Part shown: positions 16,373 to 30,733 of the stretch, piece by piece
Position numbering within the stretch: position 1 is the first letter of the stretch
Layout of the letters: the number at the start of each line of letters is the position of its first letter
Source: a virus
Taxonomy: Duplodnaviria > Caudoviricetes
Strand: one strand, 5' to 3'
IMG/VR virus record: IMGVR_UViG_3300037400_002699
Coordinates: 70,274-134,273 of that record
DNA: 64,000 bases
The notes under the pieces: generated by a model
What the model saw: only the letters and a program-made list of their open reading frames with translations
Database searches by the model: none
Told to the model about the DNA's origin: nothing
Program-made: the position numbers and the translations under genes

Positions 16373-16510
16373 GATGGTACACAAGGCTAAAAAAAAATAA
16401 TAAATTATAATATACAAAAGATGAGGAATTGTTTGAATACAGTTCCTCATTTTTTATTTCCCTACAAATATTTATTACTATATGATAACTTTAATAATAA
16501 TATAACAATT

Positions 16511-17957: not shown

Positions 17958-20561
17958 ATGAAGTATTTTAGAATATTTAAAGACACTGAGGAATATATAG
18001 AGTATATGGCAAGTCCATACGCTATATTGCCAAATGTGGCGTATTGTAAGGATGGATATAGTTACATAGCAGGAGAAGTAACTCCTCCAACACCTGTGGA
18101 TGTAACTGGTGTAACAATTAATACAGTATCAACCACAATATATGTTGGCTCAACATATCAATTGGTTGCAACAGTATTGCCAATTAATGCAACTGATAAG
18201 GCTGTTACTTGGTCATCAAGTGATAGTACTATCGCTACAGTATCAAATAACGGTTTGGTAACAGCACTTACAACTGGTGCAACAACTATTACAGTAACAA
18301 CACATGATGGAAGCTATACAGCATCTTGCGCAGTAGCTGTAGAAGAGGCTACCGTTACAACATTGACAATTGTTGGAGCACCTTCTATTAGTGCAGAAAC
18401 TTGTAATTATGAGGCAATTGGAGACAATTCAGAAGATGTCACATCATCTGCAACTTGGAGTATTACTTCTGGTTCACAATATGCAACCATTAATCCTAAC
18501 AATGGTATCGTTACCATTTTGAATGGTGCAAATAAATCAAATGTAACAATACAAGCAGAATATGCTGGCTTAACGGCAACTACAAATGTGACGCTGACTT
18601 ATGTTAGTGGGGCTACATCTGAAACTGAAACAGAATCTACAACAGATATTGGTGGCAACACAACTACAGTCACAACAACTGTTACTACAAAACAAGATGG
18701 CTCAAAAGTAGAGGTAACAGAAACTGTTATTACTGATGCCAATGGCGACTTAATTGGTACTAGTAAGAGCAATAAAACTATTAATACTGATGGTTCTTAT
18801 AATGGTACTACAACCAATTATGATGCTGAAGGTAATCCAATGGACGGTAGCAATGTGACTGGTGATACTGAGGGTAATGTAAGCACTCAGACCATTGAAT
18901 ATGATGGTAGCGGTAATGCTACCGTAACTGGATACGATATTGATACAAGTGGTAGTGAAAGTGGTAAGACATTCAATAGTGGTGGTACAAATACAGAATA
19001 TTATGCATTTGACTTAACTCACGGATTTATACTTGACTTTGATTTCACAATTGACTTCAGTAATCAGCCATCTGGCCAAAGTGAAAATCACCATAATATA
19101 TTAACTGCTAAGAGAGCAAATCCAGAACCTTGGTATGGATTCCAAATAAGACAAACTAGTTCAAATAAGTATATACAACTTGGAACACAGTTTACGACTG
19201 GTAGTAATATCAATACAAATATAAATCCATCATCTATTACTGGTAATGTTGGAAGTTATAGTTTGAGAATAGTATATGACCCAAATTTAAGTGGAAATAA
19301 GTTTGTATGCACTAATATGGTAACTGGTAATGAAATTTATAGTAGTACTGGAACATTCCCAGATTTACCAGAGCTTAAATATCTTAGAATAACCATTGGT
19401 AATGCAACTGACGGTGACGGAAATCCTTTCAGATATTCAAACATTACCGTGTCTAAATTTGAATTGAAGAAACTTAAGTATGTTGCTAATCCAACAATGG
19501 CTTATGAGAATGGTACTGTTGTAATAAGTTGTAGTACAGTTGGTGCTAGCATATATTACAGATTGAATTTATCTGGTTCTTACAGTGCATATACAACGCC
19601 AATTACAATAACAGCAGATACTGTTGTCCAAGCATATGCTACATATAGTGGCGACACAAGTGATATAATTAGAGAAGACTTTAAGATAGTTGATGTAACT
19701 GGTGTTACTCTCAGTGACAACTCAATATCAATTATAGAGGGTAGAACATATACCTTATCTGCAACAGTTTTACCAAATAATGCGTTGAATAAAAATGTTA
19801 CTTGGTCATCAAGTGACAGCAATGTTGCCTCAGTAGACTCAAATGGTGTTGTGAGTGGTGTTTCATCTGGTAGTGCTACTATAACAGTAACAACTCACGA
19901 TGGTGGCTATACAGCACAATGTGCAGTTAGTGTATCAGCTTCACCATACACAGAACTTGAATATATTGAAAGTACAAGTGATGGCGGACAATATATTGAT
20001 TTGGATATAAAACTCTATGAAACGCTGAATACATGGTATGATGTTGCGACTAAGTTTATTGTAAAGGGACCTGGTTATGACAACCTCCAACCAACATTAT
20101 TTGGCTGTCAAACCACATCTAAACCTTGGCCTGGCACGTTCATCAGAATGAATTCTATTGATGCGAAAAATGTCATTGGAAGATATATAGGAGGTTCTAA
20201 TAAAGATAACACTTTAGGAAATATAAATGCTATACTAGAATTACCAGTTAGAACAGCACCAGATAAAAACGTGTATAACTTGAACAATAGTAATCAAACA
20301 CACCGTTGGGGTACGTCTTTATTCTGTACTTTTGAAAGCGAGGATAAAACATCAGTAAGTAGGTTTATTAATGCAAGGCTATATTATTTCAAGTTATTCT
20401 TAAAGGCAAGTGCTAGTAGTGAAGGAACATTGGTTAGAGACATGGTTCCTTGCAAGAGAAACTCAGATAATAAGGTAGGTTTACTTGATAAGGTTAATAA
20501 TGTATTCTATGTTTCTCCAAATGGTGCTGAATTTGTTGGAGGACCAGAAGCTAGTGTATAA
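17958..20561 (+). CDS. Multidomain adhesin: shared N-module, two Big_2 Ig-like domains, chitobiase/Fn3-associated-like domain, C-terminal ConA/LamG-like domain
   Basis: VTGVT...LxATVLPxNAxxKxVTWSSSD twice; IYYRLN...YTTPITI; LEYIEST...QYIDL...LVRDMVP. Confidence 0.85.
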   Translation: MKYFRIFKDTEEYIEYMASPYAILPNVAYCKDGYSYIAGEVTPPTPVDVTGVTINTVSTTIYVGSTYQLVATVLPINATDKAVTWSSSDSTIATVSNNGLVTALTTGATTITVTTHDGSYTASCAVAVEEATVTTLTIVGAPSISAETCNYEAIGDNSEDVTSSATWSITSGSQYATINPNNGIVTILNGANKSNVTIQAEYAGLTATTNVTLTYVSGATSETETESTTDIGGNTTTVTTTVTTKQDGSKVEVTETVITDANGDLIGTSKSNKTINTDGSYNGTTTNYDAEGNPMDGSNVTGDTEGNVSTQTIEYDGSGNATVTGYDIDTSGSESGKTFNSGGTNTEYYAFDLTHGFILDFDFTIDFSNQPSGQSENHHNILTAKRANPEPWYGFQIRQTSSNKYIQLGTQFTTGSNINTNINPSSITGNVGSYSLRIVYDPNLSGNKFVCTNMVTGNEIYSSTGTFPDLPELKYLRITIGNATDGDGNPFRYSNITVSKFELKKLKYVANPTMAYENGTVVISCSTVGASIYYRLNLSGSYSAYTTPITITADTVVQAYATYSGDTSDIIREDFKIVDVTGVTLSDNSISIIEGRTYTLSATVLPNNALNKNVTWSSSDSNVASVDSNGVVSGVSSGSATITVTTHDGGYTAQCAVSVSASPYTELEYIESTSDGGQYIDLDIKLYETLNTWYDVATKFIVKGPGYDNLQPTLFGCQTTSKPWPGTFIRMNSIDAKNVIGRYIGGSNKDNTLGNINAILELPVRTAPDKNVYNLNNSNQTHRWGTSLFCTFESEDKTSVSRFINARLYYFKLFLKASASSEGTLVRDMVPCKRNSDNKVGLLDKVNNVFYVSPNGAEFVGGPEASV

Positions 20562-25601: not shown

Positions 25602-28600
25602 ATGACAAAAAATGCAAATTATGTCTCTCATAAGAAGAGCAAACAAATTGTTGACGGTAAGCCAAAACTACCGTTGGCATCTGCGTTGGTTGAAGGTGAG
25701 ATAGCCGTCAACTTCGGTAAAGATGTTGAAACATTGTCAATCAAGAATGAGAGCGGTGATGTCGTGACATTCTCATCTGACAACTATTACACTGAGAAGA
25801 AACTTGGTAGTGGATTTACTGGTGCAAACAGTGCAGTAACTGTAACAGATGTTATAGAAGAAAACGAGGAAATAATTGCTGCTGCTTTGACAGACCTCGA
25901 TGAAAGGAAACTAGATGCATCAGCATATACGGAACTTTGGGAAGCTGGCACTGGTGAAAATTCAGTTATTCTAAAGAATAGCAATAATGTTGCAAGTGGC
26001 ATTTCATCAGTTGCTGAAGGTAGTGGTACAACAGCAAGCGGTAATTATTCTCACGCAGAAGGTAATAATACAACAGCAAGTGGCTATTATTCTCACGTTG
26101 AAGGATATAACACAATAGCAAGCGGCTCACCTTCTCACGCTGAAGGTATATATACACAAGCAATCGCCAGCGCTTCTCACGCTGAAGGATATGGCACAAT
26201 AGCAAGTGGCTCACCTTCTCATGCTGAAGGATTTAATACAATGGCAATTGCTAACTATTCACACGCTGAGGGGTATCAAACAAGAGCATTTGGATATACA
26301 TCACATACTGAAGGATATTATACAACAGCAAGTGGTAATTCTTCTCACGCTGAAGGGTATTATACAACAGCAAGTGGTGATACTTCTCATGCTGAAGGAC
26401 ATTATACAACAGCAAGTGGTGATTATTCTCATGCTGAAGGACAAAGTACAAAAGCAATTGGAGGTCAATCTCATGCTGAAGGATATTATACAACAGCAAG
26501 TGGCTATTACTCACATACGGAAGGACAAAGAACAATAGCAAGCGGTAATTCTTCTCACGCAGAAGGACAAAGTACTAGTGCAACTAGTTATGCTTCTCAT
26601 GCTGAAGGTAGTAGTACAATAGCAAGTGGTGATTCTTCTCACGCTGAAGGAGCAAGTACAAGTGCGACAAGCCTATATTCTCACGCTGAAGGTTATCTAA
26701 CAAAAGCAAGTGGAAATCATGGCTCTCACGCAGAAGGACAAAGTACTAGTGCAACAAGTATATCTTCTCACGCTGAAGGTTATGGCACAATAGCAAGTGG
26801 TAACTATTCTCACGCTGAAGGACAAAACACAACAGCAAGTGGCAGCCGTTCTCACGCAGAAGGTAATAATACAGTAGCAAGTGATAATTCTTCTCACGCT
26901 GAAGGACAAAACACAACAGCAAGTGGTAATTCTTCTCACGCTGAAGGGTATTATGCAACAGCAAGTGGTAACTATTCTCACGCTGAAGGACAAAACACAA
27001 CAGCAAGTGGTGGCCGTTCTCACGCAGAAGGGCAAAGTACTAGTGCAACAAGTTATGCTTCTCATGCTGAAGGTAGTAGTACAATAGCAAGTGGTAATTA
27101 TTCTCACGCAGAAGGTAATAATACAACAGCAGGTGGTAATTATTCTCACGCCGAAGGATATAGTACGACGGCAAATAACGATTCAGAACATGCAAGTGGT
27201 CAGTATAATGTAAGTTATAGTGCCACAACCACATTTGGTGACAGCGGTAATACATTATTCTCAGTTGGTAATGGAAACTATAGCGCACCTCATAATGCGT
27301 TTGAAATAAGGCAGAATGGCGATATTTACATAACAAGTGGTGGTACAGTAACAAGTTCACCGATTAAGTTACAGGATTATATTGGTGGAGGAGGAAGTAT
27401 TACTGTTGACCAGGTATTGGATGACACCACATCAGCTTCAACAAACCCAGTATCAAGCAAGGCTGTATATAAGGCTGTAACTGACAATGAGCTTGTATGG
27501 ACAAATGCATATGTCACATTGAGTGGTACTGTAAGCGCACATACTGCGAATACTGAAATACACGTCACTGCTGCTGATAAGGAGAAATTACACACAATAA
27601 CTGGTTCTGTTGGTACAATGGCATATGAGAATGCTAACTCATATTCTAGTGCGACTGAGGTTAATACAGCATTGGGAAATAAGGCAAATACAGCAACAAC
27701 ACTTGCGGGGTATGGCATAACTGATGCATATACCAAGTCTGAGACAAGTGGAGCTACTGAGATTAGTAATGCATTAAGTGGAAAGGTTGACAGTGCAACA
27801 TATAATACGCATACTGGTGATACAACAATACACTTCACCACTGGAGCAGTACAGACACAGATTGATAATTCAATTAGTGGAAAAGTTAATACAAGTGACA
27901 TTATCAGTGCAATTACATCTTCAAACAGTGGCTCAACAGCACCAATTGCAACAAAGGTTGTCGCTGAGAATGAATTGACTGTATCAAATGCGTTGAATGA
28001 TTTGAATACAACAATCACAGCACATACAGCAGATACAAGTATACACGTGACACAAGCATTGCTTGATAGGATTGCTTACCTTGAAAGTAAGGTAATATAC
28101 AATGGCCACGATTATGTTGAGATTGGTGGTCTTAAGTGGGCAACAATGAACATTGGTGCTTCGCAGCCAAGTGATTATGGCTTATACTTTGCTTGGGGTG
28201 ACACACAAGGCTACACTGCTGAACAAGTAGGTAGTGGTGAAGGACAGAAATACTTTGGTTGGGCAGACTATAAGTACGGTAATGGTACAAGCTCACCAGG
28301 TGCTACAGGAATGACCAAGTATAATGCCACCGATGGCTTAACAACACTTGAGGCTGTTGATGATGCTGCTGTTGCTAATTGGGGTGGCAGTTGGCGTATG
28401 CCAACAACTGCTGAATTCCAAGCTCTTGGTGCTGCCGTAAACACTGCATGGACTCAAGTTAACAATGTATATGGTATATTATGCACAGATAAAACAGATA
28501 GTTCCAAGACATTATTCTTCCCTGCTGCTGGCTTCTGTTACAATGGCAGTGTCAGGAACGTAGGCAATGACGGTGACTATTGGTCTAGTTCTCTTATCAC

Positions 28601-28709
28601 TAATAATAGGCAGCTCGCCTACGTCTTGGCCTTTTACAGTAACGATGCTCGCTGGGGTAACAGCAACTACCGCTCCTGCGGCTGCGCAGTTCGCCCTGTG
28701 GTTGGTTGA
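25602..28709 (+). CDS. Trimeric receptor-binding fibre: Mtd_N-like N-terminus, YadA/Hep_Hag-like SHAEG repeats, stalk, C-terminal CLec-fold DGR-target domain
   Basis: LVEGEIAVN; ~28 14-aa SHAEGxxTxASGxx units; KWATMNIGA...GLYFAWG...WRMPT...FFPAAG...YWSSS...AVRPV. Confidence 0.88.
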   Translation: MTKNANYVSHKKSKQIVDGKPKLPLASALVEGEIAVNFGKDVETLSIKNESGDVVTFSSDNYYTEKKLGSGFTGANSAVTVTDVIEENEEIIAAALTDLDERKLDASAYTELWEAGTGENSVILKNSNNVASGISSVAEGSGTTASGNYSHAEGNNTTASGYYSHVEGYNTIASGSPSHAEGIYTQAIASASHAEGYGTIASGSPSHAEGFNTMAIANYSHAEGYQTRAFGYTSHTEGYYTTASGNSSHAEGYYTTASGDTSHAEGHYTTASGDYSHAEGQSTKAIGGQSHAEGYYTTASGYYSHTEGQRTIASGNSSHAEGQSTSATSYASHAEGSSTIASGDSSHAEGASTSATSLYSHAEGYLTKASGNHGSHAEGQSTSATSISSHAEGYGTIASGNYSHAEGQNTTASGSRSHAEGNNTVASDNSSHAEGQNTTASGNSSHAEGYYATASGNYSHAEGQNTTASGGRSHAEGQSTSATSYASHAEGSSTIASGNYSHAEGNNTTAGGNYSHAEGYSTTANNDSEHASGQYNVSYSATTTFGDSGNTLFSVGNGNYSAPHNAFEIRQNGDIYITSGGTVTSSPIKLQDYIGGGGSITVDQVLDDTTSASTNPVSSKAVYKAVTDNELVWTNAYVTLSGTVSAHTANTEIHVTAADKEKLHTITGSVGTMAYENANSYSSATEVNTALGNKANTATTLAGYGITDAYTKSETSGATEISNALSGKVDSATYNTHTGDTTIHFTTGAVQTQIDNSISGKVNTSDIISAITSSNSGSTAPIATKVVAENELTVSNALNDLNTTITAHTADTSIHVTQALLDRIAYLESKVIYNGHDYVEIGGLKWATMNIGASQPSDYGLYFAWGDTQGYTAEQVGSGEGQKYFGWADYKYGNGTSSPGATGMTKYNATDGLTTLEAVDDAAVANWGGSWRMPTTAEFQALGAAVNTAWTQVNNVYGILCTDKTDSSKTLFFPAAGFCYNGSVRNVGNDGDYWSSSLITNNRQLAYVLAFYSNDARWGNSNYRSCGCAVRPVVG
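26006..27190 (+). repeat. 42-bp (14-aa) tandem repeats, ~28 units
   Basis: TCTCAYGCWGAAGG-N7-ACAACAGCAAGTGG framework. Confidence 0.92.
28521..28709 (+). other. Putative DGR variable region VR1
   Basis: Abrupt shift to NNC/NNT codons at the positions that are AAY in Bacteroidota DGR templates. Confidence 0.75.
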
Positions 28710-28912
28710 CGAATCAAAACTGACGTTTGTTTCAACACAGCTATAGCTGTATGGTAATTCATCATACAACCATATGATTTGGATAATAGATTTCAATTCT
28801 GTTAGAAATATTATTTATTTGCATAATATTTTTATATTTGAATTTGATATTTATTATTAAATGTAACAATTAACAAAAATAGATAATAAATTAATAAAAT
28901 ATTTTAAAAATT

Positions 28913-30733
28913 ATGATTAAGAATCTTTATTCACTAGGGCTTTTACGTAACGGTAAGGTCTATTCTAACAAGGAATTGGCAGCTCAAGGCTTGAAACAAT
29001 CAGCAACAAACGATGGTGTTGCAAAGTTGGCTCGTTATTTAGCCCCTGTTGCTGGTGGAGACACAATCATCCGTACATTGGTAGGCTTCTATGCAAATGC
29101 TGATGAAATGGAGGACAATGGCGGTGGTAAATCATACTACACCATTCTTGACGTTGAAGGAAGTGCAGCAGATGTTGAGGAAATCAAAGAAGAAGTCGCT
29201 AAAATCAATGAGTTAATTGGTGATGGAATTAGTGGCACTACTCTTACAGACGCAATCAACGACATCAATGACAGAATCGGTAGTGGTTTCTCTGAGGACT
29301 TTACAGTAGCAGATGCATTGGTAGCACTTGCTGATGAGTTGGAAGACAAACTAACAGTTTCTCTTGATGTTGCAGGAGAACCTGCAAGCGGTTTTCTTAA
29401 GACTTATATCCTTTCACAAGGAACTGGTACTGGCAAGACTGAGATTGGACGCATTGACATTCCAAAAGACCTTGTGGTAACTGAAGGTAAACTAGTACAC
29501 GGTACTTGGAGTGGCGATACGTTTACAGAGGATGAGGAAGGTCCTGATACCGCTATCAAACTTGTGATTGCAAACCAAGAAGACCCTGTATACATCAACA
29601 CCAAAGACCTTGTTGATTATTACACGGCAGGAAATGGTATTGATATTGACAATACACATAATACCATTTCAATCAAGTATAATACCCACAGTGAGAGATT
29701 CCTTGTTGTAGACGAGGATGGTATTAGGGTTGAGGGCATACAAGCAGCAATCGACAAGAAGGCTGACGAAGAGAGACTTGAGGCAAGTGATGGCATTTCA
29801 ATCGCTTCAAACAAGGTTAAGGCTGTTGCAGCAGGATATTCAGCTCCAGCAATAAAGAACCCAATCACAGTTGATAAGGACGGTATCAAGTTTGCAAACA
29901 TACTTGATTGTGGATTCTTCGATGACGAAACTGAGATTGTTTCTACAGCAGAGGATATTAACGCAATCGCAGACCCACAGAATACTGATGTGTTCATCAA
30001 CGGTGACGGAGCATTGAATGCACTTACAGATAAGAAGACATTCAAGAACATTGAAGTTAGTGACGTTGACGCAAATCAGCAGATTTACCTTTATGCGGCA
30101 GAGTCAATCAACGTTGATGGTATGGAAGTAACTGGAACAAAGGGTTCAACAAACGGATATGTTAACTATAGCGCACCTGTAATTAACATTTCTAATCTTT
30201 CAATTGCAAATGGTTCAACAGCATATAACATATTTGAGGGAGACCAAGCAAATCAGAACCTTGATGAATTAAATGCGCAGTATGTAACAGTTGACAACCC
30301 ATCACTTACGCACAACGTGTTCAATGTTTATAAGCCAAAAGATAATGCTGTAATCAATATTTCTGACTCTAAGTTTAATTTGACTGCTGAAAATTCCAAC
30401 ATTTTGAGAGTAAGCAACTATGCTAATGCTACAAATGTTACAGTTAACTTCGAAAACGTAGATTGGACATATGAGAATGGACTAACGAAAGATAATTGGC
30501 GTTGGGCAGGATTAGTTATCTATCAACCAGCAGGCGGTGATGCAGGACTTAGTGGCAATTTGGATGCAATGAAGACCTGGAAGTTCAACTTCATTAACTG
30601 CAAATACAATGGTGTTAAGGTGACTGCAAATAACTTCGGTGAACATAACCAGGTATTCTACATGTACAATGTAGGTGGAGACGGAAGCATAAAAGACCCA
30701 GTTGAAAATGGTTTGATATTGAGCTTCGAATAA
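28913..30733 (+). CDS. Fibre/virion structural protein, paralog of 12972..14906, with extra C-terminal beta-rich domain
   Basis: Shared N-domain; internal ILDCGFF motif followed by an Asn-rich beta-helix-like domain. Confidence 0.8.
   Translation: MIKNLYSLGLLRNGKVYSNKELAAQGLKQSATNDGVAKLARYLAPVAGGDTIIRTLVGFYANADEMEDNGGGKSYYTILDVEGSAADVEEIKEEVAKINELIGDGISGTTLTDAINDINDRIGSGFSEDFTVADALVALADELEDKLTVSLDVAGEPASGFLKTYILSQGTGTGKTEIGRIDIPKDLVVTEGKLVHGTWSGDTFTEDEEGPDTAIKLVIANQEDPVYINTKDLVDYYTAGNGIDIDNTHNTISIKYNTHSERFLVVDEDGIRVEGIQAAIDKKADEERLEASDGISIASNKVKAVAAGYSAPAIKNPITVDKDGIKFANILDCGFFDDETEIVSTAEDINAIADPQNTDVFINGDGALNALTDKKTFKNIEVSDVDANQQIYLYAAESINVDGMEVTGTKGSTNGYVNYSAPVINISNLSIANGSTAYNIFEGDQANQNLDELNAQYVTVDNPSLTHNVFNVYKPKDNAVINISDSKFNLTAENSNILRVSNYANATNVTVNFENVDWTYENGLTKDNWRWAGLVIYQPAGGDAGLSGNLDAMKTWKFNFINCKYNGVKVTANNFGEHNQVFYMYNVGGDGSIKDPVENGLILSFE

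Follow-up and report, generated by a model that had tools for sequence, protein, structure and literature searches.

The closest described counterparts of the locus analysed here are the CLec2 targets of diversity-generating retroelements (DGRs), which form category 'd' of Wu et al. 2018 (DUF1566/Lcl_C/Fib_succ_major; Legionella LdtA), the DGR of phage BPP-1 with its gene order mtd-avd-TR-brt (TR, template repeat; PMC3240598), and the non-adjacent or remote targets of Treponema denticola and Legionella (Wu et al. 2018). Our subject is P0001, a long fibre gene in a 64,000-nt stretch of phage DNA (the window), which forms the right-hand 64 kb of the 134,273-bp IMG/VR virus record IMGVR_UViG_3300037400_002699 (G000; positions 70,274 to 134,273). 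At its 3' end, P0001 carries a variable repeat (VR) of a kind that we call type A. This is probably a genuine DGR-written repeat whose cassette, comprising the accessory gene, the TR and the reverse transcriptase (RT), is missing from this phage.

With the CLec2 targets, P0001 shares a C-terminal VR of ~63 codons and weak Lcl_C and FISUMP matches, and the template assigned to it shows the AAY-rich sequence, the adenine-specific mismatches and the TR-then-RT core of CLec2 DGRs. The locus differs from these systems in that RT, TR and accessory gene are absent from the record and the cognate template is found in other phages. In addition, the target belongs to a phage fibre whose stalk consists of YadA-head repeats, and the related cassettes on contigs L051 and L052 contain an open reading frame (ORF) of 186-197 aa, with no Avd seen between target and RT. 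The BPP-1 system offers the parallel of a phage protein that binds receptors and ends in a lectin-fold VR, with the TR/VR homology stopping at the stop codon and an inverted repeat past it, at 27 nt in our case. It is unlike the present locus in that P0001 has no sequence-level match to Mtd, the stem of the inverted repeat measures 5 bp and its loop is TATA, and the cassette is absent. Like the remote targets, the VR lies away from any RT and TR and bears an A-to-N imprint; the known remote targets, however, share a genome with their cassette, whereas here the template was found only in other phage genomes. Wu et al. (2018, PMC5758913) expected phage DGRs to lack remote targets. Surveys of DGRs take an RT and a repeat close to it as their starting point (Roux et al., bioRxiv version), and VRs in RT-less genomes are therefore invisible to them. 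In the literature that we searched, with incomplete coverage, no description of VRs in RT-less phage genomes was found. What sets this locus apart from the described kinds is the missing cassette combined with a matching template in the genomes of other phages.

The initial annotation had recognized an orphan VR from a switch in codon usage over the last ~63 codons of the gene and had placed it at 28521-28750. These limits were close, and a gapless alignment to the template corrects them to 28518-28707. The codon switch itself was borne out: in the 63 VR codons, the third position is C in 46%, C or T in 86% and A in only 3% of cases, at a GC content of 52%, as compared to 13%, 57%, 34% and 41%, respectively, in the other 972 codons of P0001. 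Among all 63-codon windows of the gene, the highest frequency of C at third positions is at the VR. To describe the variation, we compared the window with its five closest orthologous modules, a comparison between genomes and not within one population. In the 417 nt upstream of the VR, the five modules are 89-94% identical to the window, and variable columns fall on codon positions 1, 2 and 3 in the ratio 29/25/49, as opposed to 24/29/9 within the VR. The shift toward codon positions 1 and 2 begins at 28533. More than two alleles are common in the VR, with 32 of its 62 variable columns holding three or four, and 53 of the 62 include A. A protein search with the tip module of P0001 returned 2337 clusters, mostly singletons of ~246 aa. 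Across 121 of these proteins, entropy reaches ~3 bits at AAY-derived codons and is near 0 at scaffold residues, and TAC-derived codons show only Y, C, F and S. Taken together, the concentration of variation at codon positions 1 and 2, the entropy at AAY codons and the restricted repertoire of TAC codons mark the imprint of adenine mutagenesis rather than ordinary selection. In these between-genome data, hypervariability is confined to the positions that are adenines in the TR.

We identified the template by using a predicted TR, that is, the VR with its variable positions set to A. A 30-mer and two 24-mers of this prediction gave 0 matches in IMG/VR, and an 18-mer was discarded as a template finder, having returned only VRs and an unrelated DGR (L037). 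One predicted-TR 24-mer matched a single metagenome contig of the JGI collection, NFZD01001081.1 (L050), which derives from a related jumbo phage; the predicted template of a stranded tip, recognizable from sequence alone, could thus be fished out of 241 million metagenome records. The TR on this contig, L050:11037-11226(-), is a non-coding repeat of 190 nt; a 186-aa-type ORF ends ahead of it, and an RT gene follows closely behind. The repeat reads as the Asn-rich sequence that the initial annotation had derived by resetting variable codons to AAY. The L050 TR aligns to the VR without gaps and with 26 mismatches, 23 of which are at TR adenines. Accordingly, 23 of 57 adenines are changed in the window (12 A to G, 8 A to T and 3 A to C), whereas only 3 of 133 non-adenine sites differ. 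Two of these three sites are private changes of the L050 copy: there, the L050 TR has T or G although all VRs vary as they do at adenines, and the cognate TR therefore has A. At the third site (CGC vs CGT), another type-A TR fragment, L069:1-30, reads CGC. Measured against the cognate template inferred in this way, the window VR is changed at about 25 of 59 adenine sites and shows no other difference. The cis pairs of TR and VR in L051 and L052 compare well, with 31/54 and 19/54 adenines changed, respectively, and 0 non-adenine changes in both. The window VR and the L050 repeat hence form a pair differing almost only at TR adenines, in which the TR resides on the contig of another phage.

Other candidate templates were examined and rejected. 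A near-copy in host genomes, which the initial annotation had also envisaged, did not materialize: two 24-mers searched against ~185,000 bacterial and archaeal species genomes (GTDB) gave 0 and 1 match, and no cognate template. The single match, L082, is an unrelated bacterial CLec2 TR, ~70% identical. This TR, at L082:2400-2700(-) on a contig of a bacterial metagenome-assembled genome, lies beside an RT and shares an identical 24-mer with the type-A TR. A second copy in L004 and a match in L025 are both coding paralogues, and L009:250-555 is a truncated VR-bearing copy. The latter region encodes a 101-aa ORF consisting of the last third of the lectin domain and a diversified type-A VR, preceded by stop codons, and represents a truncated copy of the tip module. 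Two DGRs in the related genome G002 were likewise dismissed as a source; each of the two TRs is matched to the VR next to it, and neither fits the VR of the window. The unrelated phage contig L037, which surfaced via short common motifs, harbors a DGR with two VRs, a TR and an RT (L037:148-2300).

The genomic position of P0001 points to the place where a cassette would be expected. In relatives, an accessory ORF, the TR and a 392-aa RT are located between the lectin target gene and a gene of 598-606 aa (Table 1). The window retains both flanks of this arrangement, separated by a short spacer. Its 606-aa gene is 72% and 64% identical at the amino-acid level to the genes directly following the RT in L051 and L052, and 71-73% identical at the nucleotide level to the counterparts in L050 and G002. 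The RT after the TR in relatives matches RVT_1 at 5e-16, and intact homologues of the 392-aa RT are frequent, with 98% identity to the copy in L050. All cassettes seen with an RT of this family (L050, L051, L052, L063, L069 and G002) occupy the fibre/606-aa-gene locus, and deletion scars are present in L057 and L059. In L057, residues 1-128 of the accessory ORF are fused to the last 29 RT codons, while L008/L059 kept the 3' end of the RT and a piece of an RT1-type gene. This shows that the cassette was repeatedly lost from one conserved locus in this phage clade. In the window phage, no RVT_1 domain and no homologue of the 392-aa RT or of the G002 RTs was detected in the entire 134-kb record, a TR was found neither by DNA search nor with the real TR as query, and a homologue of the 186-aa accessory ORF was also absent. 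The absence of RT and template, first noted for the 64 kb, thus holds for the whole record, and the label of an orphan VR is supported; a matching template beside an RT does exist in related phages. RT and TR were not found in the same genome as the VR, in a record that is ~45% complete.

Relatives of the window phage, which are phages of about 400-412 kb, allow a broader view. The nearest complete one, G010 (412,753 bp), shows 75-84% nucleotide identity to the window phage and, like G011 (412,514 bp), is estimated to be 100% complete. In both genomes, a lectin-tipped fibre gene abuts the 606-aa gene as in the window, at a locus well inside the contig, and neither contains an RVT_1 gene, a homologue of the 392-aa RT or a type-A TR. 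G010 also has the same fibre and the same VR 3' flank with its small hairpin. The RT-less state of G001 (401 kb) was dropped as proof of orphan status in favour of G010 and G011, because the G001 contig ends ~10 kb short of the locus syntenic with the G002 DGR and the absence is therefore not safe. The 412-kb genome G002 could be closed through a 137-nt overlap of the contig ends, which lies inside the second VR and has one A/C mismatch; the assembly must therefore have broken at a polymorphic VR. In total, 13 IMG/VR loci encode the same tip domain as the window gene.

How did the VR arrive in its present state? We propose that an RT copied a type-A TR into cDNA, misreading adenines, and that the cDNA replaced the VR, a sequence of events suggested by the mismatch pattern. 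The tip, with VR and 3' flank, would have been grafted onto the P0001 fibre by recombination. The repeat would then most likely represent a recently written snapshot, now static, that fixes one receptor specificity; we give about even chances to the VR being static today. The numbers of non-adenine mismatches to the best template are instructive here. There are 0 real ones in the window and L004, 1-2 in L005, L007 and L008, and 8/120 plus a replaced 3' end in L006, which lies in the closed genome G002. The fibre tips of the RT-less G010 and G011 and the second lectin gene of the window, P0246, reach 16-27%, being either decayed or derived from unknown template types. Stranded VRs, if static, would amount to dated records of receptor specificity, and the loss of DGRs could be traced by counting non-adenine mismatches. 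Several observations pull the other way and weaken the case for a phage that has lost its cassette and carries a frozen repeat. G000 is estimated to cover ~45% of its genome, leaving ~55% unseen and a remote cassette possible, and the completeness of G010 and G011 rests on a CheckV estimate. Type-A VRs and type-A TRs never occur together on one contig, such that their pairing rests on sequence fit. Furthermore, both type-A RT copies (L050:9775-10941(-) and L069:103-1281, from independent assemblies) contain an in-frame TAG, which is CAG (Gln) in the intact 392-aa RT of L051; the L069 RT is otherwise open, but the L050 RT also has a frameshift in an A-run. The lineage in question may have recoded TAG to Gln, or the gene may be a pseudogene. 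G000 itself encodes only two tRNAs and no suppressor. Finally, and contrary to a static repeat, non-adenine sites of the VR differ by 1-3% between genomes, compared to 6-11% in the 417 nt upstream.

Because the window VR lacks any real non-adenine mismatch and non-adenine divergence is so low, continued rewriting in trans, as put forward in the initial annotation, is compatible with the sequence, although unproven. In such a scenario, cDNA from a co-infecting jumbo phage with a type-A accessory-TR-RT cassette would still replace the VR. We regard this as a tentative possibility. The VR is pristine relative to the inferred template, and across six genomes without a type-A TR the divergence at its non-adenine sites stays far below that of the adjacent domain, which amounts to 10-17% at third positions. 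In addition, the cognate TR is confined to other phage lineages, whose neighbouring gene shows 71% identity, and in experiments with BPP-1 a cassette provided in trans is functional (PMC5758913; PMC3240598). On the other hand, three contigs from two or more samples encode one and the same stranded VR protein of the L008 type, the non-adenine mismatches of stranded tips span 0 to 27%, which suggests decay after loss, and the window lacks the conserved-loop hairpin that follows cassette-linked targets. The low non-adenine divergence would also be expected if each genome had until recently carried a cis cassette of its own, with the TR conserved among them. A few co-circulating jumbo phages with a type-A TR-RT might rewrite the VRs of cassette-less relatives upon co-infection, making this a DGR that acts across genomes, a possibility just as tentative; if true, the mutator would be a shared good for the phage community, and host-range evolution of these phages would depend on co-infection. 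The incompleteness of the record leaves room for the phage's own type-A cassette in the missing ~55% of the genome, in which case the VR would be an ordinary remote target, as known for cellular DGRs (PMC5758913). We consider this unlikely, given that all cassettes seen of this RT family sit at the fibre/606-aa-gene locus, that this locus is intact and empty here, and that the nearest complete relatives share the abutting layout and have no RT anywhere. Least probable by far is a tip diversified by selection and recombination on the lectin binding face, with no DGR involved. Fast evolution is usual for the binding faces of phage fibres, and the module has clearly been exchanged by recombination, but variation is limited to sites with an adenine in a real template beside an RT, third codon positions are fixed, and TAC-derived codons give only the four residues named above. 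We therefore favour a DGR-written VR whose cassette is missing from this phage. In this clade, lectin tips have moved between proteins together with their VR, and there are VRs whose only matching template sits in another phage.

The VR forms the end of a fibre protein composed of an N-terminal anchor, a stalk of YadA-head repeats, a linker and a C-type-lectin tip (Table 1). By tblastn, the anchor is 58% identical to that of a 1176-aa fibre in L051 and 80-82% identical to those of the G010 and G011 fibres, and a P0001-type N-terminus is also present on the 1099-aa target of the first DGR in G002. The stalk clearly belongs to YadA_head (PF05658; 65.6 bits against a cut-off of 25, 4.4e-18). For the tip, matches to Lcl_C (24.9 vs 34.9 bits, Pfam, 2.6e-5) and FISUMP (18.8 vs 41.65 bits, 0.002) are below the curated cut-offs; most homologues of the tip carry precomputed PF07603 matches. 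A close full-length homologue of P0001, that is, the same fibre with another VR, was not found, and the 606-aa neighbour is not on record either.

Table 1. Features of the P0001 locus, and corresponding sites and gene orders in related phages. Positions refer to the window unless a contig or genome is named.
Feature	Position	Strand	Basis or remark
Fibre gene P0001, 1035 aa	25602..28709	+	ORF list and translation
N-terminal anchor	25602..25950	+	Common to fibres that are DGR targets or adjoin DGR cassettes in relatives
Stalk of 42-nt (14-aa) tandem repeats	25965..27233	+	Repeat family D1, 21 copies, 42-nt spacing
Putative mosaic tip module: lectin domain, VR, ~60 nt 3' flank	28098..28772	+	blastn limits; synteny with L054
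DGR variable repeat, 190 nt, type A	28518..28707	+	Gapless alignment to TR; codon-position and entropy signatures
Spacer, 203 nt, between VR-gene stop and 606-aa gene start	28710..28912		Relatives carry hairpin, 186-197-aa ORF, TR and RT there
Perfect palindrome ACAGCTATAGCTGT, 14 nt	28737..28750		5-bp stem ACAGC/GCTGT, 4-nt loop, in 45-nt 3'-flank element
606-aa gene	28913..30733	+	Conserved downstream neighbour of DGR cassette in relatives
Second small Lcl_C-type gene P0246, 252 aa	30875..31633	+	Shared N-terminal module; VR-like C-terminus, template type unmatched
Gene order in L051			Long fibre with P0001-type N-terminus; 611-aa RT-domain protein; two small genes; 219-aa Lcl_C target with VR; conserved-loop hairpin; 186-aa ORF; TR; RT; 598-aa gene
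Gene order in L052			Target; 197-aa ORF; TR; RT; 599-aa gene
Gene order in G002			Fibre target 1; Avd-like ORF; TR1; RT1; two genes; target 2; Avd; TR2; RT2; same downstream gene
Conserved 181-197-aa ORF, between target and TR	L051:9074-9634; L052:544-1137		
Conserved 181-197-aa ORF, elsewhere in locus	L047:18147-18692 (G002); L063:7401-7922		
Conserved-loop hairpin	L004:10640-10680 and 20140-20180(-); L005:10790-10830; L051:8995-9040; L052:500-545		Inverted in L054/L058 at ~7900

A structural model of the tip (AF2) has a pLDDT, the predicted local distance difference test score, of 75. Its best match by VIA-align is the C-terminal domain of Legionella Lcl (Z 7.0, root-mean-square deviation 3.0, 103 aligned residues), and the solved DGR variable proteins TaqVP (Z 6.7), TvpA (6.3) and Mtd (6.2) are among the top matches, followed by many C-type lectin domains. 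The list consists almost wholly of lectin folds, at middling Z values, whereas a Foldseek search of the model against the PDB gave no significant match. Judging from this model, the VR is placed at the C-terminus of a C-type-lectin-fold domain and would encode the ligand-binding face of a lectin-fold tip on a long fibre protein. The description of the fibre as Mtd-like can accordingly be kept at the level of the predicted fold, where the identity to Mtd is 13%, but not at the level of sequence: homology of P0001 to Mtd was not detected, and Pfam and NCBIfam give only YadA_head, Lcl_C and FISUMP. The tip domain is nearer to the Lcl_C/DUF1566 'CLec2' class than to Mtd.

The tip module appears to be a recombinant insert. 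In all blastn matches of L004-L008, the left limit in the window is at 28098-28107 and the right limit at 28685-28772. Within these limits, the module is 87-90% identical to modules in unrelated contexts, whereas the fibre body is only ~73% identical to that of its nearest relative, G010, whose own tip is of another type. Given the tight match limits and the divergent fibre body, the lectin domain, VR and ~60-nt flank would therefore have moved as a unit onto the fibre, recombination being the cause that best explains the similarity pattern. Hundreds of proteins carry the same tip domain behind LRR, Big_2, collagen, FN3 and glycosidase parts. The window itself contains the second Lcl_C-type gene, P0246, whose VR-like end has 22.7% non-adenine mismatches to the nearest template type. 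Relatives of P0246 (~60% identity) vary in the same C-terminal stretch, which could represent either a VR stranded long ago or one written from a still unknown type of template.

The palindrome past the stop codon, which the initial annotation had likened to a DGR target hairpin, is indeed present, but it does not conform to the published rule for such elements, namely a 7-10-bp GC-rich stem and a 4-nt GRNA loop at 4-34 bp from the VR (Guo et al. 2011, PMC3240598). Its stem has 5 bp with 3 GC pairs, its loop is TATA, and it lies 27 nt past the stop. Perfect palindromes of 14 nt are not rare, with 10 in the window as compared to 5.6 +/- 2.4 in shuffles, and the local fold at this site is unremarkable (z = -1.6). 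The surrounding 45-nt element is common to the window, L005, L008 and G010. The palindrome stem is kept in L005, L008 and L054, with the loops TAAC, TATC and TAAC, respectively, as opposed to TATA in the window. Many Lcl_C target genes are followed by a different, conserved-loop hairpin with covarying 7-12-bp stems, a ~16-nt loop ACAAGCGNNAGCCCAA and a T-run, which occurs in either orientation (Table 1) and is possibly a terminator or a recognition element. In the window, its motif gave 0 matches with up to 2 mismatches allowed.

The conserved 181-197-aa ORF of the related cassettes has no match in Pfam, PHROGs or PDB sequences, and may be a new accessory protein or a mere resident neighbour. 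In G002, two complete DGRs, each with target, Avd-type ORF, TR and RT, are arranged side by side (G002:1-3638 and 404,600-412,435; L046/L047). A further recurrent element is a ~40-aa N-terminal module (repeat families D9 and D14), which starts several genes at or near positions 16496, 24020 and 30857 of the window. The payloads behind it differ, comprising BspA LRR, Ig-like and Lcl_C domains, and the same module is also present on most of the 246-aa carriers of the tip module.

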